Source: Alteromonas naphthalenivorans (GTDB lineage Bacteria > Babelota > Babeliae > Babelales > CAIQNR01). From it: a stretch of 21,186 nucleotides of DNA. Below the pieces are notes generated by a model. That model saw only the letters and a list, made by a program, of their open reading frames with translations, made no database searches and had not been told where the DNA came from. Of this stretch, positions 5,205 through 20,678 are shown one piece after another. Location: positions 1-21,186 of the forward strand of contig JBLICC010000013.1 of assembly GCA_047631715.1 (NCBI GenBank), read 5' to 3'. A program made the position numbers and the translations under genes. The stretch's first letter is position 1. The number at the start of each line of letters is the position of its first letter.

Positions 5205-5483
5205 TTATTTATTTGCAGCAGCTTTTTGTCTTTGTGCAAGAACAGCTAAAATTGCTGGATTCTCTTTAATTTGTTGCAGCACGCTTTCTTCATAACTCAA
5301 TGGCTCTGTAGATTGCGATGAATCTTTATCATCAAACAACTGTTCAACTTCATCTACACCTTCTGATATCACATTATCAACCACTGCTTCAATTTTTTCT
5401 ATATAATCTTGTTGCGGTTGTTCTGTCGCATGTATAAACGCTATCGCACTCAATAATATACTTACTACTATTTTTCTCTTCAT
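5205..5483 (-). CDS. Small acidic secreted protein, N-terminal paralog of the neighbouring RING protein
   Basis: AAGGAG RBS, signal MKRKIVVSILLSAIAFIHA, and EQPQQDY...EVEQL shared with 5510..6064. Confidence 0.75.
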   Translation of the reverse strand: MKRKIVVSILLSAIAFIHATEQPQQDYIEKIEAVVDNVISEGVDEVEQLFDDKDSSQSTEPLSYEESVLQQIKENPAILAVLAQRQKAAANK

Positions 5484-5509: not shown

Positions 5510-6064
5510 CTATAAATCATCTCTACCGTCACGAAGAAATCGATTCTGTCTATCAAGTTCAAATGGCACTGGCATCATATCAGCACCTAAATATGAAGGT
5601 TCTGCTGGTTCAGTATCTCTTCTTCTTCTTCTTTCTCTTAATCTCTGTCTTACTCGTTGCTGAATGTTTCGGCCTACTCGCGCTACATATTGCAACATAT
5701 TTTCACCTTGTTGGCGCATATAACCTTCTGTAGTAACACCTGCATGATTAAAATTAGCTCTACATAACGGACAAGAATTTTTCTGTTGTATCCATGGTCT
5801 TAAACATTCATGATGAAAAGAATGTTCACATGGTGTTGTAGCTATTGCTTGCGGTGGTATCATACCTGCCAAACAAATTGGACAATTTGCATGCTCTTCT
5901 TCTGATCCATGAGCATTGCCATCTACCAACTGTTCAACTTCCCCTACCGCATGACCAACCATATCTTCTGCTTGCTCAACATAATCTTGTTCTGGTTGCT
6001 CTGCCGCATTAAGATTTAAACATCCAAATACAAACAATACACTTAAAAACAACTTATTCATCAT
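5510..6064 (-). CDS. Secreted RING-H2 (C3H2C3) finger protein, putative E3 ubiquitin ligase effector
   Basis: AAGGAGG RBS and signal peptide (..GCLNLNA). CPIC-x14-CEHSFHHEC-LRPW-x6-CPLCR is a complete RING-H2 with the conserved Trp and Pro, followed by an Arg-rich stretch. Confidence 0.88.
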   Translation of the reverse strand: MMNKLFLSVLFVFGCLNLNAAEQPEQDYVEQAEDMVGHAVGEVEQLVDGNAHGSEEEHANCPICLAGMIPPQAIATTPCEHSFHHECLRPWIQQKNSCPLCRANFNHAGVTTEGYMRQQGENMLQYVARVGRNIQQRVRQRLRERRRRRDTEPAEPSYLGADMMPVPFELDRQNRFLRDGRDDL

Positions 6065-11089: not shown

Positions 11090-13180
11090 TTATAGACCTA
11101 TTTTTTTAAAAAATGCATCAGAATTTGGTTCTCTACCAAGATAGTCACGCAACATAGCATCAGGGTCTTTGCTGCCACCACGGCCAAGAATTTCTTCTAC
11201 ATACCGTTTGCCCGCTTTGGGATTTAACAAGCCCTCTTTTTCTACTTGAGCAAATACGTCGTCGGCAAATACTCGTGACCACATATAGCCATAATATTTT
11301 GCACCATAACCAGATAAATGCCCAAAGCTACATATAGAATGCGTGTCTGTATCATACACACCATGTGGAGAAAATTCCTGTGAATGCTTTTTAAAAATAG
11401 CTTCTGGATCTTTATCTTCATCTTGCCCAAAACAATCTAATGATATTAAACCAAAACCCATCTGCTGAGCATTACGCATTCCTTGGCCAAACTTTATTTG
11501 AGCAAGTTTCTTATCTATTAACTCATCCGGCATTGGAATACTTGTTTTATAGTGATGCGTAAGCCCTTGTAGAATTTCTTTATTTTCCATCCAGTTTTCT
11601 AGCAACTGAGAAGGCAACTCTACAAAATCTGTTTTAACCGATGTTCCCGATTGTGCTGCTAACTTTGTTGTACCCAAAACACCATGAATCGCATGCCCAA
11701 ATTCATGAAAGAATGTATTAACCTCATCAAACTTAAGTAATGAAGGTTTATCTGCTGTTGGTTTAGTAAAGTTACAAACAACTGTTGTTACCGTTGGATA
11801 AATAGCACCATCTCGTTCTACAGTAGTTACACCAGGGAACATTGCCGCATGACCATATTTATTTGGTCGAGGAAACATATCCAAAAATACATAGCCACGA
11901 ACAGGGCCATTCTTGTCACTAATCTTTGCTAATCGCACATCTGGATGCCATGATTGTGGCGAATCAATTGTCTCGATGTTAAGATCAAAAAACTTTTCAT
12001 AAATATCAAGAAGCCCGCGAACCGTTTGCTCCATAGGAAAGTATTCAGCTATTTTTTGTTCATCAACATCATAATATTTTTTCTTAAAGTACGTACTAAC
12101 ATATCCACCATTCCAACTTTCTAGTTTGCCAGCTTTAGTTAAAGAAACACCTTCTGGAAGATCTTTAGTAAACTCTTTAAATTCTTGGTCAGACTTTTTA
12201 AGAAGTTTATCTTTCATATCAAGTTGAAATTTACGTGCACGCTCTGGTGTTTTAACCATTTGAGAATCTAAATCTAAATGTGCATAACTTTTAAAATCAA
12301 GTGCTTTTGCAAGCTCATGCCGCGTATCCATAAGATCTTTAAGCACAGTACTATTTGATGGATATGCTTTATTTTTAAATGCTTTGCTAAATCGTTTACG
12401 CGTATCTTCTACCTTGCAATAAGACAAAATCATATTTGCAGTTGGATAGTCAGTAACCAAAATATACTCACCCGCATCATTCTTTTTAAGCGCTCCAACA
12501 AAATCATCCGAAACACCTGTCAACTGCTGTTTAGTTGCGGTAATAGAACTAGCGTCGTTATTAATATTTTGAGAAAACTGTTGCGAAATTTTTTGTAATT
12601 TTTTATTAAGTTCTACAATTTTTACACGTTTATCTTCTGGCAGCTCAAGACCAGAACGTTTAAAATCACCTATCAATTCATCAAGAGCCAAGTGCTCTTC
12701 TGGTGAAAATTCTTCTTGTGTTGCATTACCGTGATCATAGCCTTTAAACGCTTCATACAAAGAAATGTTATTACTTAAATGCTCAAGTAAAAAACCTTTT
12801 ATCGCTAAATCCTGCTTTGCTGCTTCATCTCGCATTGCTTTGTCTGGATGTACAGACATTATCAATTCAAAAATTCCAAGATCGGGACCAAAATAAGCAT
12901 AGGCATTATCAAGTGCTTCTAGCATATTTTTTTTATTTTGCTTATTATGCGGCACTGCAATAATTGCATCTATAATTTTTTTAGACTGATCCTGTGTAAA
13001 CTTTGCACGCTCTTGTATTGCTGTTATAGAATTGGGATATACGGTATATACATCTTCTAAAGTTTTAATGTATACATGTCCTTGTCTGTCTCGTGGCATC
13101 ATAACGTTTCTTTCGCTTTTAATAAAAAAAGTAAGCGCACACAGTGTGAGAGTGCCTACTACCAATATTGTTTTTTTCAT
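11090..13180 (-). CDS. M3A zinc oligopeptidase (thimet oligopeptidase/neurolysin-like) with N-terminal hydrophobic leader
   Basis: TFFHEFGHAIH (HEXXH), DFVELPSQLLENW, FGHL.GYGAKYYGYMWS and LDMFPRPNKYGHAA. Confidence 0.93.
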   Translation of the reverse strand: MKKTILVVGTLTLCALTFFIKSERNVMMPRDRQGHVYIKTLEDVYTVYPNSITAIQERAKFTQDQSKKIIDAIIAVPHNKQNKKNMLEALDNAYAYFGPDLGIFELIMSVHPDKAMRDEAAKQDLAIKGFLLEHLSNNISLYEAFKGYDHGNATQEEFSPEEHLALDELIGDFKRSGLELPEDKRVKIVELNKKLQKISQQFSQNINNDASSITATKQQLTGVSDDFVGALKKNDAGEYILVTDYPTANMILSYCKVEDTRKRFSKAFKNKAYPSNSTVLKDLMDTRHELAKALDFKSYAHLDLDSQMVKTPERARKFQLDMKDKLLKKSDQEFKEFTKDLPEGVSLTKAGKLESWNGGYVSTYFKKKYYDVDEQKIAEYFPMEQTVRGLLDIYEKFFDLNIETIDSPQSWHPDVRLAKISDKNGPVRGYVFLDMFPRPNKYGHAAMFPGVTTVERDGAIYPTVTTVVCNFTKPTADKPSLLKFDEVNTFFHEFGHAIHGVLGTTKLAAQSGTSVKTDFVELPSQLLENWMENKEILQGLTHHYKTSIPMPDELIDKKLAQIKFGQGMRNAQQMGFGLISLDCFGQDEDKDPEAIFKKHSQEFSPHGVYDTDTHSICSFGHLSGYGAKYYGYMWSRVFADDVFAQVEKEGLLNPKAGKRYVEEILGRGGSKDPDAMLRDYLGREPNSDAFFKKIGL

Positions 13181-13189
13181 ACTTGCTCC

Positions 13190-15142
13190 TTAATCCTTTT
13201 GTAACTCCATCCATTGCTCTCGTAATTCAATAGCTTTTTCAAAATCCATCTCTTCTGCCGCTTTATGCATCTGATACTCAAATTGAGCTAATTGCTTTTG
13301 TAGATCTTCTTTCGATGCCTTACGCTTACCTTTTTTGTATGCATTCGATGCTTTTTTGATATCTTCTTGTAGTTTAGAAATACTTTTGGTCACCTCGCGC
13401 TGCACACTCTCTGGTGTTATACCATGCTTCTTATTATATTCCTGTTGCATAATACGTCGACGATCAGTTTCATCAATCGCGTTTTTCATAGAGCCTGTCA
13501 TTTTATCTGCATACATAATAACTTTTGCATCAACATTACGAGCAGCTCGCCCAATAGTTTGAATCAATGAACGTTTGTCTCGTAAAAAACTTTCTATATC
13601 TGCATCCATAATAGCAACAAGAGCAACTTCTGGAAGATCTAAACCTTCTCGCAATAAGTTAACCCCAACCAAACAATCGAACACACCCATACGCAATTTC
13701 TGTAATAACTCAGTACGTTGCGGTGTTTTTATATCACTATGCAAATAACAAACTTTTAATTTTTTTTCTTCTAAGTAACGTGCCAAATCTTCTGCCAATT
13801 TTTTAGTAAGCACAGTAACCAATGTTCTTTGGTTCTTATCTATTTTTTGTTTAATCTGATCAACTAAATGATCCATCTGACCTATTCTACCCACTACTTC
13901 TATAATTGGATCTACCAAACCAGTTGGCCGAATAACTTGCTCAACAATTGCACTTGAATGCTCTAACTCATAGGGACCCGGCGTAGCAGACACAAAAACT
14001 GCATCTTTAAGAAATTTTTCTGTTTCTTCAAACTGCAAAGGCCTGTTGTCGAGAGCTGATGGCAATCTAAATCCAAAATCAATCAATGATCTTTTGCGCG
14101 ATCTGTCTCCAGCATACATGCCACGCATTTGCGGCAATGCAATATGAGATTCATCAATAATACATAAAAAATCTTTGGGAAAGAAATCAAACAAACAAAA
14201 CGGTTGTTCACCGCTTTTACGTCCATCAAAATGAGAGGAATAATTTTCGATCCCACTACAATACCCTACTTGATCTATCATTTCTAAATCACGCGCAGTG
14301 CGTTGAGCCAGTCGCTGACGATACAATTCATTTTTTACCGTTGGCAAATACTCTTTAAGTTCTTTCTTGATACTCGTAATAGCCGAACGCTTTTTTGCCT
14401 CAGTTGTTACAAAATGCTTAGCAGGAAGAATTAATATATCTTCTAACTTCGCTAACACACGATTATTATCTCGGGTTACCCATTGTAAACCTTCGATTGT
14501 GTCCCCAAATAACTCAATACGTAATTTATCTTTTATATATGGTAAATTTACTTCAACCGTATTGCCACGAACCTGAAAAGTACCGGAGCCTTTTTCGAAA
14601 TCATCACGTTTATATTGAATAAAAATTAATTGCCGCAATAGATCTTTTCGCTTAAATGTATCGCCTACTTTTAGCGCAAGAGCTAACTCTCGATAATCGG
14701 TAGGATTGCCTAATGCATAAATAGTAGAAACCGAAGCTATAACAATAGTGTCTTTTCGATTAACCAAAGAGGCAGTTGTCTCCACCCGTAACCGTTCGAT
14801 CTCAGTATTAATCTTGGTTTCTTTGGCAATATAAATATCTTGTGCAGGCAAATATGATTCTGGTTGATAGTAATCATAATAACTTACAAAATAACATACT
14901 TTATTTTCTGGGAAAAAAAGCGAAAACTCTTCGTAAAGCTGAGCCGCTAATGTTTTATTAGGAGACAAAACAAGTACAGGCTTATCTTGCTGAGCAATAA
15001 TATTGGCCATCGTAAACGTTTTACCAGAACCAGTAACACCCATTAACGTAGATTTGCCTGGACGATCTTTGAGCAATTCTTTAATCGCCTTTGGCTGACT
15101 ACCCTTAGGCTTAAAAGGAGATTTTAGTTTAAAGAGAGCCAT
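13190..15142 (-). CDS. uvrB: Excinuclease ABC subunit UvrB
   Basis: GVTGSGKT, NKTLAAQLY, FVSYYDYYQPE, DESH, GFRLPSALDNRPL, NLLREGLDLPEV, QTIGRAARN and a C-terminal UVR domain. Confidence 0.98.
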   Translation of the reverse strand: MALFKLKSPFKPKGSQPKAIKELLKDRPGKSTLMGVTGSGKTFTMANIIAQQDKPVLVLSPNKTLAAQLYEEFSLFFPENKVCYFVSYYDYYQPESYLPAQDIYIAKETKINTEIERLRVETTASLVNRKDTIVIASVSTIYALGNPTDYRELALALKVGDTFKRKDLLRQLIFIQYKRDDFEKGSGTFQVRGNTVEVNLPYIKDKLRIELFGDTIEGLQWVTRDNNRVLAKLEDILILPAKHFVTTEAKKRSAITSIKKELKEYLPTVKNELYRQRLAQRTARDLEMIDQVGYCSGIENYSSHFDGRKSGEQPFCLFDFFPKDFLCIIDESHIALPQMRGMYAGDRSRKRSLIDFGFRLPSALDNRPLQFEETEKFLKDAVFVSATPGPYELEHSSAIVEQVIRPTGLVDPIIEVVGRIGQMDHLVDQIKQKIDKNQRTLVTVLTKKLAEDLARYLEEKKLKVCYLHSDIKTPQRTELLQKLRMGVFDCLVGVNLLREGLDLPEVALVAIMDADIESFLRDKRSLIQTIGRAARNVDAKVIMYADKMTGSMKNAIDETDRRRIMQQEYNKKHGITPESVQREVTKSISKLQEDIKKASNAYKKGKRKASKEDLQKQLAQFEYQMHKAAEEMDFEKAIELREQWMELQKD

Positions 15143-15356: not shown

Positions 15357-16118
15357 ATGATGAAAAAGTTATTCGTTCTTATATTGTTAGGCTTATCAAG
15401 TTTATTCATTCAAGCATCAGATTCAGATAATGAATTTGAAATGGTCATTACACCAGACTCTATACCTGATCCTGATGAATTCGAAAACATTAATCTTAAT
15501 CCAGCTTCACAAAGAGAGTTTCTTGGTTTAAATAATGTATTAGAAAAGCCCAAAGTGTTTTCTCACAAAATAATACGACAGCATCAACTTACAATGCTTA
15601 AACTTGCTCATAATCCTGATCATTCTTATCTTCTTGATTATGTAAAAAATGCTTTTACGGCAGTTGATGAAGATTTTTGGCAAATGTTTACTCCCGATGA
15701 TTCTTCTTCTAAACACAAACAATGGAAAAATCTTACTTTTGAAAAAGCTCAAAGAATATCACAACCATTTTATGTAGCCCTTAAAGAAAACTTTAATGAA
15801 GATGATAAAAAAAGAGTTCGAGATCTTATTAAAGAATCGATGGGAAAAGATACATCTCGCTCAGCAATGCTCATGCCTCTTGTTATAAAACTCAATCAAG
15901 AAAATCCTGATGCTATTAAAAACTTTGCATCAACACTTAAAAAATGGACTTCTGATAGAGTTTCATTTGATTTAATGCATAATTATTACTCTCGTCAAAT
16001 AGATCAGTTTAGAGGACGCCTAGAGAAAGAACATATTACTCCTATTGTTAAGCCTCTCTTTGAAACCGATTTAGAACTACCAACAATTGAGGCGGCTTTG
16101 TTGCAATATAAAAAATAA
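15357..16118 (+). CDS. Secreted hypothetical protein with acidic N-terminus carrying two LIR-like motifs
   Basis: AGGAGG RBS, signal MMKKLFVLILLGLSSLFIQA, then SDSDNE-FEMV and DPDE-FENI. The remainder looks helical. Confidence 0.8.
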   Translation: MMKKLFVLILLGLSSLFIQASDSDNEFEMVITPDSIPDPDEFENINLNPASQREFLGLNNVLEKPKVFSHKIIRQHQLTMLKLAHNPDHSYLLDYVKNAFTAVDEDFWQMFTPDDSSSKHKQWKNLTFEKAQRISQPFYVALKENFNEDDKKRVRDLIKESMGKDTSRSAMLMPLVIKLNQENPDAIKNFASTLKKWTSDRVSFDLMHNYYSRQIDQFRGRLEKEHITPIVKPLFETDLELPTIEAALLQYKK

Positions 16119-16218: not shown

Positions 16219-16809
16219 ATGAAAAATACGTTTTTATTTTTACTACTTATGCTGGTCTTTAAAATACAAAGCTCCAATATAGATCAAATACCCGATTATT
16301 GGTCTAATCACATTCCAATAGATTACTCACAACACTATTTTTGTAATCCTAATACTCTCTATCAAAACAACACAGATCTTGAATTATTAGAAAAACATAT
16401 GCAACAAAAAAGAAGATTAGATTTTGAACAAGAACAAAAAAAAACAACTATTACTCCCTCTCCAATTCAAACAGAAGCCACCTCTCCTCATACTCATCAA
16501 ATACAAACCCAAACGGTATTATCAAATATTCCTCAACTAGCAACCATTATGAAAAAAATTAGGGCACAAGGCATAGAAAAAATGGTATGTCCTTTTTCTG
16601 ACTGTAAAAAACATTGCAAAACAGGAAAAAACTTATTTACACATTTAGAAACAAATCACTCAGTTAATTTTAAAGAAGAAAGCCAACTGAGTAATATTTC
16701 TAAAAAAATATATATATGCTTAAAATGCTCTTGGGCAACTCCACATAGAAATACCTTATCTACTCATAACACAAAACATTTTCTCGAAATCCCTAAAAAA
16801 AATCAATAA
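16219..16809 (+). CDS. Secreted C2H2 zinc-finger protein (2 fingers)
   Basis: Signal peptide, C-x4-C-x12-H-x4-H (CPFSDC...HLETNH) and C-x2-C-x12-H-x3-H (CLKC...HNTKH). Confidence 0.82.
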   Translation: MKNTFLFLLLMLVFKIQSSNIDQIPDYWSNHIPIDYSQHYFCNPNTLYQNNTDLELLEKHMQQKRRLDFEQEQKKTTITPSPIQTEATSPHTHQIQTQTVLSNIPQLATIMKKIRAQGIEKMVCPFSDCKKHCKTGKNLFTHLETNHSVNFKEESQLSNISKKIYICLKCSWATPHRNTLSTHNTKHFLEIPKKNQ

Positions 16810-16827
16810 CTTTAATGCAAAGAAATC

Positions 16828-17634
16828 ATGAAAAAACAATATTTCATACTACTAATCACCCTCCTGCTTACTACTTCTAATAAAGCTTCAAATTATACCG
16901 ATCCAGATGTATTTACGTTTTTTAATAAAATAGATACTGAACTTACAGAAAAAAATGAACAGATTTGCGTATTAGCCTTAGCTGACTGGAAAGCACAAGA
17001 AGAATTTTCTAAGAAAGCAGCACAACCAAAAGATCTTTCACTCATAGCATTAGCAGATATTTGCCCCTGGAGCCCCTCTAGATTAGTAAAGAAAATTTTA
17101 AACCATGATAGAACACATAGCCAATGCGTAGAACTTGATGGACAAGAAATAATACCTAAAGCTTTACGCCGACCTCATCCTGATCGTAATATACATTTTC
17201 TTGGATGGGATACATTTCCACCTTCACAATCTCAATTCCTAGAAAATCCTGCAACTTCACCTACAATCAATAACAATACCTTTAAAATAGCTAAGGCAAC
17301 TAAAAAAAGAATCCATCTTAAGCAAAATGCTGGTTTATATTACTGTCAAGAAGAACTTAGAATCTGTAACTACAAAACATCGATCTATAAAAATCTTGCA
17401 GCACACTGCACTGAAGTACATAAATCAAAAAAAATGCCCAACCCCATAAAATGCTTAAAATGCTGTCGGCGCGTTAGTTATTTTTCTCTTCATCCAGACC
17501 AATGTTTAGCAATTGACCCAACGAGCAGAGAGCGAGACAGAAAGGATAATAACCATAAAAAAGAAAAAATAAAAATAGGAAACCTTGCACACGTAGCCGT
17601 ACTAGCAACACTCACACAGAAAGAAACTTTATGA
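16828..17634 (+). CDS. Secreted zinc-finger protein (C2H2-like plus C2HC-like)
   Basis: Signal peptide (..TSNKA), C-x6-C-x12-H-x4-H (CQEELRIC...HCTEVH), C-x2-C-x9-H-x3-C, and a basic tail. Confidence 0.72.
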   Translation: MKKQYFILLITLLLTTSNKASNYTDPDVFTFFNKIDTELTEKNEQICVLALADWKAQEEFSKKAAQPKDLSLIALADICPWSPSRLVKKILNHDRTHSQCVELDGQEIIPKALRRPHPDRNIHFLGWDTFPPSQSQFLENPATSPTINNNTFKIAKATKKRIHLKQNAGLYYCQEELRICNYKTSIYKNLAAHCTEVHKSKKMPNPIKCLKCCRRVSYFSLHPDQCLAIDPTSRERDRKDNNHKKEKIKIGNLAHVAVLATLTQKETL

Positions 17635-18230
17635 TTAAAAAAAATATACTCACATTAATATTTATTATTTTATTTCCAGCTACTGCCACAAATATACATG
17701 ATAGAGATATACATGCTCTCATGCAAAATACAGATTTTATGCAAGAAGTTTTAACATCACCCGAAACACTAACTCCATTAATAGACCTCACTATCTCAAC
17801 ACCAAATCCAAAGTTAAAGCCTCAACCAAAAATGAGAGGTAAAGATATGGAGTTGCTCAACGCTAAACTTACTATTAAAAAAAATTGCATCGCTAAAGCT
17901 ACTTCCAGAGGGAAAGATATAAAACTTCTAAAAGCTAAAATGAGTAAATCTCGAAATCATATGTGTAAACTTTGCAACGCTTGCTACAAAAGTAGCAGTG
18001 CATTAAATTTTCATAGACAAAAAAAACATGGAAAACCATGGCCTTGCCTTGATTGCAAGAATATATACCCTGCATCCTCATCTTTGCTTTTACATCTTAA
18101 AAATGTTCATCCAGAACAAAGATCAAACGATCGATTACAATGCGAATATGGATGCATTAGACAGATTCATTGGCCTGCCGTTATGGCGCACCACAAACTT
18201 GTATGCAAAAAAGATCCAAATTTAAAGTAA
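17631..18230 (+). CDS. Secreted zinc-finger protein (2 C2H2 plus 1 C2HC, TRAF-like spacing)
   Basis: Signal peptide, CKLC-x12-H-x4-H, CLDC-x12-H-x4-H and CEYGC-x11-H-x4-C. ATGA overlap with the upstream gene. Confidence 0.85.
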   Translation: MIKKNILTLIFIILFPATATNIHDRDIHALMQNTDFMQEVLTSPETLTPLIDLTISTPNPKLKPQPKMRGKDMELLNAKLTIKKNCIAKATSRGKDIKLLKAKMSKSRNHMCKLCNACYKSSSALNFHRQKKHGKPWPCLDCKNIYPASSSLLLHLKNVHPEQRSNDRLQCEYGCIRQIHWPAVMAHHKLVCKKDPNLK

Positions 18231-18236
18231 TATATC

Positions 18237-20678
18237 TTATCTAACTACAAAAGAAATTAAGCGACCGGGAACCCAAATAACTTTGACAATACTTTTGCCT
18301 TCTAGCCATTTGGCAATCAGTTCTTTTGCTTGAGGCTCAACTTGCTCTTGCATCGCAGATCGATCGATAGTTAATTGCCCACGAACTTTACCATTTACCT
18401 GCACACCAATTGTAACTTCTGTTTGTTTTGCAAGCTCAGGATCAAATTGCGGCCAAGAACAATCACGTAATTGCTTATTAAACAACTGCTCTAACAACTC
18501 ACAACTCATGTGTGGCGTAAGCGCCGAAAGTGCAACAATCACTTGTTCGCTAGATGATGAACTAAGTTGAAGCTTATTGTGAATAAGATCATTAAAAAGC
18601 TCCATTGCTGCAGAAATTGCAGTATTAGGTTTAAAAAGATCTAAACGTTCTTGATAATCTTTTAAGAATTTATGCACACGTTTTTTTGCTTTTATATCTT
18701 CTTGATCATCTGCAATAATAGCATTATCAAAGTAAGTCATAACTTTTTGAGTAAAACGTTTAATGCCTTCTAGACCATTATCTTGCCATTCACAATCAAG
18801 TTCTGGTGGACCCATAAAGAGCATATACATACGCAATACATCTGAACCATACTTTTGTACAATTTCATCTGGATTAACTACATTGCCCTTTGATTTAGAC
18901 ATTTTTTCTACAGCACCACTCTTTTCTGAAAGCTTACAAACCATACCCTGATTAAACAGCTGCTTAAAAGGCTCATTAAATGGTACAAAGCCTTTTTCGT
19001 GCAAAAACTTTATATAAAAACGTGCATATAATAAATGTAAAATTGCATGTTCGATACCGCCCACATATAAATCAACCGGCATCCAATAATTCATATCTTG
19101 TTGATCAAACGGTTTATCGGCAAGTTTTGGATTTGGATAACGTAAAAAATACCAACAAGACCCAGCCCATTGCGGCATAGTATTAGTTTCTCGTTTTGCA
19201 GGACCAGAACATTCAGGGCATTCTGTGTTTACCCATTTATCTATACTAGCCAATGGCGATTCGCCCGTTCCTGTTGGTTGATACTTTTCTACATCAGGAA
19301 GCGCTACCGGCAACTGATCTTCTGGAACCGGAACAATACCACATTGAGTACATCTGATTAATGGAATCGGCTCACCCCAATAACGTTGACGAGAAAAAAT
19401 CCAGTCCCGTAAACGATATGATGTTTTAGGAACCGCAATACCTTGCTCTTGAACATACTTAATAATATCTTTTCGGCATTTACCAGCCACTTTACCTTCA
19501 AATGCTTTTGGTACAGTTAAAACACCATGCTGCATATCGGTATAACATACCTCAAGATTGCGTATTTTTTCTGAAAGCTCTTGGTCATCTGCAGGGAACA
19601 AAACTGGCTTAAGCGGGATATCGTATTTTTTAGCAAATGCAAAATCACGTTCATCATGCGCAGAACATTTTACAATACCTGTTCCATAATCTGCTAAAGC
19701 AAAGCTTGCTACCCAAATCGGTAAATCTCCATTACCTACAGGGTCAACTATATAACGCCCCGTAAACACACCAGCTACTTCTTTGTCCTCTTCTCTACCT
19801 AATGCTATTCGTTTTTCTAGCATCTTTTTACAGGTAGCTAAAACTTCTTTTTTATTTTCTACACCTTCAAGCAATGTCAGTAATAATGGATGATCGGGCG
19901 CAATTGCTACAAAAGTATCCGCATTAAACGCTTCAAAATGAGTAGAAAATGTTTGAATTTCTAAATCCATATCTTTAACCGGAGCAGTAAACAAAAGGCC
20001 TTCGCTTTTGCCAATCCAGTTACGCTGCATAGATTTTACTTTTTCTGGCCAATCAAGTGCATCTAAATCTTTAAGTAATGGTTCAGCATAATCGGTAATT
20101 TTTAATACCCACTGAGGGATTTGTTTCTTTTCTACTGCTGTACCACAACGCTCGCAACCATTATTTACAACTTCTTCATTAGCCAAACCGGTTTTGCATG
20201 ACGGGCACCAGTTGATAGGCATATTAGACTCATACGCAAGACCAGCTTTATACATTTGTACAAAAATCCATTGTGTCCATTTATAATAATTAGGATCGGT
20301 TGTATTAACCTCTTTATCCCAATCATAAAGAGCACCAATAGCTTTGAGCTGTTTTTTGAATGTAGCAATATTTTTGTCTGTAGAAATTTTGGGATGAATA
20401 CCCTTTTTGATAGCATCGTTTTCTGCAGGAAGCCCAAACGCATCCCATCCCATTGGATGCAATACATTGTAACCTTCTAGCCACTTTATACGCGCATAGA
20501 CATCAGAAAAAACATATCCACGCCAATGCCCAACATGCAGGCCAGAACCAGAAGGATACGGAAACATATCAAGACAGTAATATTTTTTGTCTTTATCTGT
20601 TCTTTGAACTTGAGCATCTGGATTATCTTCCCAGTGCTTTTGCCACTTCTTTTCTACTTCTGCTACGTTATACTGCAT
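18237..20678 (-). CDS. leuS: Leucine--tRNA ligase
   Basis: DMFPYPSGSGLHVGH (HIGH), GWDAFGLP, DWIFSRQRYWGEPIP, GGIEHA and KMSKS. ATG at 20678 follows GAGGA and is preferred over TTG 20693. Confidence 0.98.
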   Translation of the reverse strand: MQYNVAEVEKKWQKHWEDNPDAQVQRTDKDKKYYCLDMFPYPSGSGLHVGHWRGYVFSDVYARIKWLEGYNVLHPMGWDAFGLPAENDAIKKGIHPKISTDKNIATFKKQLKAIGALYDWDKEVNTTDPNYYKWTQWIFVQMYKAGLAYESNMPINWCPSCKTGLANEEVVNNGCERCGTAVEKKQIPQWVLKITDYAEPLLKDLDALDWPEKVKSMQRNWIGKSEGLLFTAPVKDMDLEIQTFSTHFEAFNADTFVAIAPDHPLLLTLLEGVENKKEVLATCKKMLEKRIALGREEDKEVAGVFTGRYIVDPVGNGDLPIWVASFALADYGTGIVKCSAHDERDFAFAKKYDIPLKPVLFPADDQELSEKIRNLEVCYTDMQHGVLTVPKAFEGKVAGKCRKDIIKYVQEQGIAVPKTSYRLRDWIFSRQRYWGEPIPLIRCTQCGIVPVPEDQLPVALPDVEKYQPTGTGESPLASIDKWVNTECPECSGPAKRETNTMPQWAGSCWYFLRYPNPKLADKPFDQQDMNYWMPVDLYVGGIEHAILHLLYARFYIKFLHEKGFVPFNEPFKQLFNQGMVCKLSEKSGAVEKMSKSKGNVVNPDEIVQKYGSDVLRMYMLFMGPPELDCEWQDNGLEGIKRFTQKVMTYFDNAIIADDQEDIKAKKRVHKFLKDYQERLDLFKPNTAISAAMELFNDLIHNKLQLSSSSSEQVIVALSALTPHMSCELLEQLFNKQLRDCSWPQFDPELAKQTEVTIGVQVNGKVRGQLTIDRSAMQEQVEPQAKELIAKWLEGKSIVKVIWVPGRLISFVVR

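Follow-up and report, generated by a model that had tools for sequence, protein, structure and literature searches.

The Ros/MucR proteins of bacteria contain a Cys/His zinc site, as the proteins described here are predicted to, but they are cytoplasmic and carry a single finger with a 9-residue spacing. TAL effectors are built from TAL repeats rather than C2H2 fingers. An array of C2H2 fingers in tandem is regarded as a eukaryotic feature. The bacterial nucleomodulins presented as mimics of transcription factors in passages of PMC7819608, the TAL effectors (AvrBs3/PthA) and HsvG/HsvB, come from plant pathogens. In the Babelota, intracellular parasites of protists (sections of PMC4776705 and PMC12172432), Babela and Chromulinavorax are described as carrying signal-peptide-bearing, eukaryote-like effectors with ankyrin, F-box, RING, C19 and Ulp1 domains (excerpts of PMC4378268 and PMC6561590). 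These effectors come from the same phylum and follow the same predicted export logic as the finger proteins studied here, but the domains listed for them have proteins and not DNA as their targets. Zinc-finger proteins are enriched in Kistimonas, and the passage of PMC12491435 that reports this gives the enrichment only and describes no TF-like arrays. The main texts of PMC4378268, PMC4776705, PMC6561590, PMC12172432 and PMC12644861 contain no passage on C2H2 or zinc-finger transcription factors, and that of PMC7861908 contains no zinc or C2H2 term. An earlier note on this DNA had recognised no characterised family of this kind, and likewise we found no description of one in the literature on Babelota/Dependentiae zinc fingers.

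We analysed a stretch of 21,186 nucleotides (the window) from a Babelota genome of 845 kb that is 90% complete, in which three genes had been proposed to encode exported mimics of eukaryotic transcription factors (Table 1). An integrase-type protein of this genome is 92% identical to its counterpart next to a finger gene of a Ca. Babelota record, and proteins encoded around an array of a Ca. Babeliales record are 45-74% identical to those of the genome. Checking the ORFs showed that the genes are indeed co-oriented and adjacent, with 18 nt between genes 1 and 2 and an ATGA overlap between genes 2 and 3. The fourth co-oriented gene of the island has no finger or assignable family in a Pfam scan.

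Table 1. Genes of the uvrB-leuS island and zinc fingers of the three proteins, in window coordinates
Feature	Position	Strand	Description
uvrB	13190..15142	-	left flank of island
Fourth co-oriented gene	15357..16118	+	signal-peptide-like start; same variable island
Protein 1 gene	16219..16809	+	ORF, 196 aa
Protein 1 finger 1	16588..16659	+	C-x4-C-x12-H-x4-H; helix -1/2/3/6 = T,K,N,T
Protein 1 finger 2	16717..16779	+	C-x2-C-x12-H-x3-H; helix -1/2/3/6 = H,N,T,T
Protein 2 gene	16828..17634	+	ORF, 268 aa
Protein 2 finger 1	17344..17421	+	C-x6-C-x12-H-x4-H
Protein 2 finger 2	17452..17505	+	C-x2-C-x9-H-x3-C, short C2HC
Protein 3 gene	17631..18230	+	ORF, 199 aa
Protein 3 finger 1	17964..18029	+	C2H2; helix -1/2/3/6 = S,S,A,F; then GKPWP linker
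Protein 3 finger 2	18045..18110	+	C2H2; helix -1/2/3/6 = A,S,S,L
Protein 3 finger 3	18141..18206	+	C2HC, C-x3-C-x12-H-x3-C; helix -1/2/3/6 = W,A,V,H
leuS	18237..20678	-	right flank, convergent; stop 6 nt past gene 3

The finger motifs of the three proteins are far above chance. The motif matches 5 of the 682 non-overlapping genes of 120 aa or more in the source genome, while 200 shuffles gave a mean of 0.035 matches and a maximum of one, and shuffling of single proteins produced one motif in 0.07-0.2% of 20,000 trials. Five fingers (two in protein 1, one in protein 2, two in protein 3) have the C-x12-H spacing and the leucine at H-3 that had been read in them. Four of these follow the strict C-x2-4-C-x12-H-x3-5-H pattern, and the one in protein 2 has a C-x6-C knuckle. 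They share this spacing and leucine with eukaryotic Krüppel C2H2 transcription factors. The classical layout does not extend to the two other fingers, which are C2HC, although the 12-residue spacing itself is present in six of the seven. Unlike Ros/MucR, the window proteins have two to three fingers and a signal-like N-terminus. They also differ from Krüppel factors, being products of bacterial genes with predicted signal peptides in which no KRAB, BTB or SET domain was seen, and combining atypical linkers and C2HC fingers with scores below the cut-offs. The linkers are GKPWP or 10-19 residues long, with TGEKP in none. Residues of base-contact type occupy none or one of positions -1, +3 and +6 in each window finger, against two or three in 249 of 391 canonical fingers of the phylum. 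Fingers 1 and 2 of protein 3 have none of R/K/Q/N/H/D/E at -1/3/6, a state seen in only 24 of the 391. Every Pfam finger match on the window proteins falls under its curated cut-off: the best reaches 25.7 bits against 27 (PF23612, protein 3), PF00096 scores 14-16.5 against 25.2 (zf-C2H2 E 0.072 for protein 1), and protein 2 has no match. A profile of the 391 canonical fingers gave E 0.58 for protein 3 and did not match proteins 1 and 2. AlphaFold2 models of proteins 3 and 2 had low mean pLDDT (41 and 37); finger 1 of protein 2 was the sole region past the N-terminus with pLDDT 50-70, with a helix at 187-197.

Each of the three proteins passes a heuristic signal-peptide test (not SignalP), in line with the export signals originally claimed, and none has a lipobox or a second hydrophobic segment. 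After the predicted signal peptide, protein 1 has an aromatic/acidic and then P/T/Q-rich region, a KKIR motif and two fingers 19 residues apart. Protein 2 has a long low-complexity region, two fingers and a basic tail, and contains KKEK, and protein 3, basic overall, has a P/T-rich and then Lys-rich region before its three fingers. The acidic N-terminal region that the earlier note had described is weakly present in proteins 1 and 2 and fails in protein 3 (D/E versus K/R in residues 23-110: 9 versus 6, 15 versus 10 and 9 versus 17, respectively). The Lys/Arg patch can be recognised as KKIR, KKEK and the Lys-rich stretch, but beyond the signal peptide none of the three has a stretch with 4 basic residues out of 5.

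We further investigated the distribution of such fingers with the zf-C2H2 search over the phylum that had been suggested. PF00096 matches 78 of 251 phylum genomes, 56 of them above the cut-off, and is patchy by family: it was found in 13 of the 15 other genomes of the source genome's own family, in 28 of 75 in a second one (f19), and in none in several. In two control phyla, those of one Pacebacteria and one Prochloraceae genome, which had been picked for having a match and were left out of the count, no genome matched (0/250 each). As far as these two phyla go, the fingers are not spread among other bacteria. From 62 loci, comprising the best-scoring matches and 20 hand-picked regions and thus not a full census, we collected 84 ORFs with two or more fingers, which belong to 30 genomes; six are open at the 5' end. 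Of the 78 whose 5' end is closed, 70 have a signal-peptide-like start, in 63 of them counted from the first ATG, and several of the remaining eight resemble antisense frames or have no start. The same test is passed by 302 of the 682 source-genome genes and by 158 of 3663 internal Met positions, a false-positive rate of 4%. As about 44% of source-genome genes have one, a signal peptide does not single out these proteins; this background equals the 44% of Chromulinavorax proteins with signal peptides given in an excerpt of PMC6561590.

The 70 signal-bearing proteins contain 396 fingers, joined by 326 linkers of which 152 are strictly TGEKP-like and 283 are of canonical length. Their N-terminal regions are net acidic in 46 of the 50 scorable members, the other 20 being too short to score. 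A 4-of-5 basic run lies outside the fingers in 34 of 70 (shuffles: mean 5.5, maximum 11), and in 22 of 70 it lies just ahead of finger 1, compared with 2.4% of control windows. Variability is among the highest at the contact positions -1, +3 and +6, the clearest cases being the arrays of two genomes, G184 and G001; in G184 the entropies of these positions are 2.7, 3.0 and 2.9 bits, versus 0.4-2.0 at variable non-contact positions. Arrays of five to eight near-identical paralogues lie among housekeeping genes in these two genomes and in G007. In seven arrays, pN/pS is 0.83-1.43 at contact positions and 0.47-0.90 at scaffold positions, which include two near-invariant ones; these values are no proof of positive selection because they are uncorrected and near saturation. 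Eukaryotic Krüppel factors likewise have TGEKP linkers, an acidic N-terminus and contact residues that vary. As far as sequence can tell, the canonical members have the anatomy of eukaryotic activators plus an export signal, and the set looks like a group of exported, diversifying transcription-factor mimics.

Three more genes of the source genome combine a signal-like start with canonical TGEKP-linked fingers (C39:607-1227, C39:1240-1644 and C46:5176-6004), the last of which has at least 6 fingers, runs off the contig end and scores above the curated Pfam cut-off. These are better DNA-binding test cases than the window's three, which are likely divergent outliers of the phylum-wide effector set. 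A separate gene on the minus strand (C8:22925-23416) encodes a protein that begins with a signal-like segment and has a basic patch and one finger-like motif; it is possibly a further divergent member.

On balance, we lean towards a reading in which the window's three, as likely outliers of a Babelota effector set, are exported, enter the nucleus of the host and disturb transcription there. What the sequences show is the presence of the finger motifs and of hydrophobic signals at the N-termini, a spread restricted to the phylum, rapid turnover at the locus, and genes for export. The proteins would be exported via Sec and then type II secretion into the protist host; we infer that the signal peptide is cleaved, that the fingers are loaded with zinc, and that the proteins get out of the bacterium and any vacuole and into the nucleus. 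The need for a type II substrate to cross a vacuole membrane weighs against this reading. Canonical members would recognise promoters of the host and serve there as activators or competitors, whereas the window's three would more likely make low-specificity DNA contacts or bind host nuclear proteins. Their reading of DNA is uncertain because of the atypical linkers, the C2HC fingers and the conserved small or hydrophobic helix residues of protein 3. Each of the five genomes checked has at least two secretin genes and also encodes Omp85, signal peptidase I, a T2SS/T4P ATPase and ATP/ADP translocases, which are present in the source genome; none of the five has a T3SS or VirB4 marker. Type II components have been reported across the phylum (sections of PMC4776705), and type II is given as the sole secretion system of Babela (excerpts of PMC4378268). 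Together with the export genes, these reports make Sec followed by type II secretion the likely route.

The three window proteins would likely work like nucleomodulins. The proposed Babelota proteins would resemble TAL effectors and HsvG/HsvB, as these are presented in passages of PMC7819608, in acting like transcription factors in the host nucleus, and canonical members share with TAL effectors their modular diversifying repeats. They would differ in that the known proteins are type III-injected into plants, while the Babelota proteins would travel by Sec/type II into a protist. If this is true, a family found in roughly one in three genomes searched in a parasite phylum would mean bacteria using their host's own DNA-reading code. 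The specificity of fingers is partly predictable, so that canonical arrays would allow target genes to be sought by computation and experiment, and perhaps also the hosts of uncultured Babelota. The larger finding is the phylum-wide family, which lies outside the window.

Relatives of the window proteins bear on how they might act. The three had been taken for one diverged family, but their paralogy lacks support because the best pairwise E is only 0.19; this lack of significant similarity also rules out a recent tandem duplication. Homologue searches recovered only itself for protein 1 and gave no result for protein 2, which is weakly related to two syntenic genes of the same-genus genome G001 (E 9e-6 and 5e-4) over the finger region only, the four ligand positions of its finger 2 aligning in both. 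Protein 3 is 50% identical to P0004 and 55% identical across the fingers to P0041, both of which have signal-peptide-like starts. Predicted ligand residues are kept in these relatives, except for the first Cys of finger 1, missing in P0041. The recognition helix of finger 2 is invariant among these three aligned relatives (protein 3, P0004 and P0041), with Ala, Ser, Ser and Leu at contact positions, and small or hydrophobic helix residues are conserved in this family. No orthologue of protein 3 was found in 260 other phylum genomes, where matches were generic finger matches of E 3.6e-9 or weaker, and no metagenome locus was found. A two-sequence profile of protein 3 has its best PDB matches in ZFP568 (5v3j), PRDM9 (5egb) and CTCF (8ssq), with E 9e-15, and its shortened GKP linker aligns to Krüppel arrays. 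The finger 2 helix of protein 3 is a conserved atypical surface, not a diversifying one. The idea of a diversifying TF-like family thus holds across the phylum and elsewhere in the source genome, but not for the helices of protein 3.

C2HC fingers bind proteins or ubiquitin, and the three proteins might be exported and yet be adaptors that bind proteins or RNA in the cytosol of the host or at its mitochondrion, not acting on transcription (for example, through C2HC fingers that bind ubiquitin or GATA-type proteins). This would agree with the spaced fingers, the C2HC types and the conserved small or hydrophobic helix faces of the protein 3 family, with the five RING-motif proteins with signal-peptide-like starts in the same genome, and with the replication of Chromulinavorax wrapped by a mitochondrion (excerpts of PMC6561590). 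We nevertheless consider it rather unlikely, as the net charge of the window fingers ranges from neutral to basic (0 to +5) and protein 3 combines 12 K/R within the 40 residues preceding its fingers with the Krüppel-like GKP linker. That the three are envelope or periplasmic proteins, metal-binding or disulfide-rich at the surface and varying under host pressure, is improbable. A Sec signal alone reaches the periplasm only, and the locus turns over fast, but the window proteins have no lipobox or membrane anchor, none of the five genomes has a credible DsbB (one spurious match contains stops), no use at a surface is evident for the conserved Krüppel linkers and the variable contact positions seen in the wider family, and no member was found in the 500 control-phylum genomes. 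It is very doubtful that they are the bacterium's own cytoplasmic regulators with misleading N-termini: MucR offers the precedent of a bacterial C2H2 regulator, but 70/78 family members have signal-like starts at a false-positive rate of 4%, the window proteins have no ROS_MUCR Pfam match, and the spacing is 12 residues, not 9.

At the locus, comparison of leuS regions showed finger-like exported genes adjoining leuS in 5 of 14 relatives (G001, G003, G006, G007 and G010, the last counted by motif alone), with weak (E 0.001-0.06) or absent Pfam matches. Other genes occupy the site in 7 of the 14, and uvrB lies directly next to leuS in G012 and G015. The uvrB-leuS site is an old island with fast turnover. 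The GC3 of the three genes (0.20-0.24, versus 0.24 +/- 0.05 for the genome) and their position between uvrB and leuS make contamination unlikely. Near-ORFans though they are, it is highly improbable that they are contamination from a eukaryote, or that they derive from acquired finger genes which have lost their function and are decaying, given three intact frames on one contig, finger residues kept in relatives 50% diverged, and the recurrence beside leuS. A selfish nuclease element was ruled out, the Pfam scan and the neighbourhood containing no nuclease domain, and a promoter scan was at chance level (10 versus 14.8).

Other genes of the window and source genome carry signal-like starts. 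An M3 oligopeptidase gene with such a start adjoins uvrB (11090-13180) and has two copies in the same-genus G001 (L175:1-3964). A RING-H2 protein, also with a signal-like start, is encoded at 5510-6064 on the minus strand (PF13639, E 4e-14), followed by a shorter gene (5205-5483, minus strand) with a similar N-terminus and no RING. The source genome has five RING-motif genes with signal-peptide-like starts, whose products are likely exported E3 ligases.

Outside the phylum, we found the exact double Krüppel-linker pattern at 105 loci among GTDB species genomes. By title, 71 are Endozoicomonadaceae (including Endonucleobacter; a count dominated by one genome), 6 are Babelota-group and 28 are other. 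These 28 include MAGs, Cardinium, Arsenophonus, Bacteroidota, three Pseudomonas, two Asgard archaea and short contigs, which may be contamination. The skew to eukaryote-associated bacteria, though not exclusive, fits a target in eukaryotic cells. Among 28 inspected loci, signal-like starts were found in Cardinium, two Bacteroidota and one Endozoicomonadaceae. Kistimonas resembles Babelota in being host-associated with expanded finger genes, and Krüppel arrays were seen there, but it belongs to a different phylum and most of its finger proteins checked have no signal peptide. We tentatively put forward, as a serious possibility, that Babelota export a phylum-wide, rapidly recoded Krüppel repertoire whose members would work in the nucleus of the protist as transcription factors, making it the C2H2 equivalent of TAL effectors, and that Endozoicomonadaceae, Cardinium and RHS-bearing Pseudomonas have independently coupled this module to other delivery systems; the three window proteins would be the most diverged edge of this repertoire.

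Several of these arrays have distinct architectures. In Pseudomonas (L088:1-1929, also L089 and L141), an RHS-associated core, demonstrated as TIGR03696 for L088, ends in 5-6 Krüppel fingers, and the array is possibly the cargo of an RHS/Tc-type carrier. One Endozoicomonadaceae genome has a long run of short paralogous finger-array genes (L075-L081, L130-L137), whose proteins have no signal peptide and begin with the fingers, followed by a Thr-rich tail. Krüppel arrays also occur in Endonucleobacter (L095), an intranuclear parasite, and in Cardinium (L139), there with a signal-like start, and those of the two Asgard archaea (L113 and L121) are followed by a further C-terminal domain.
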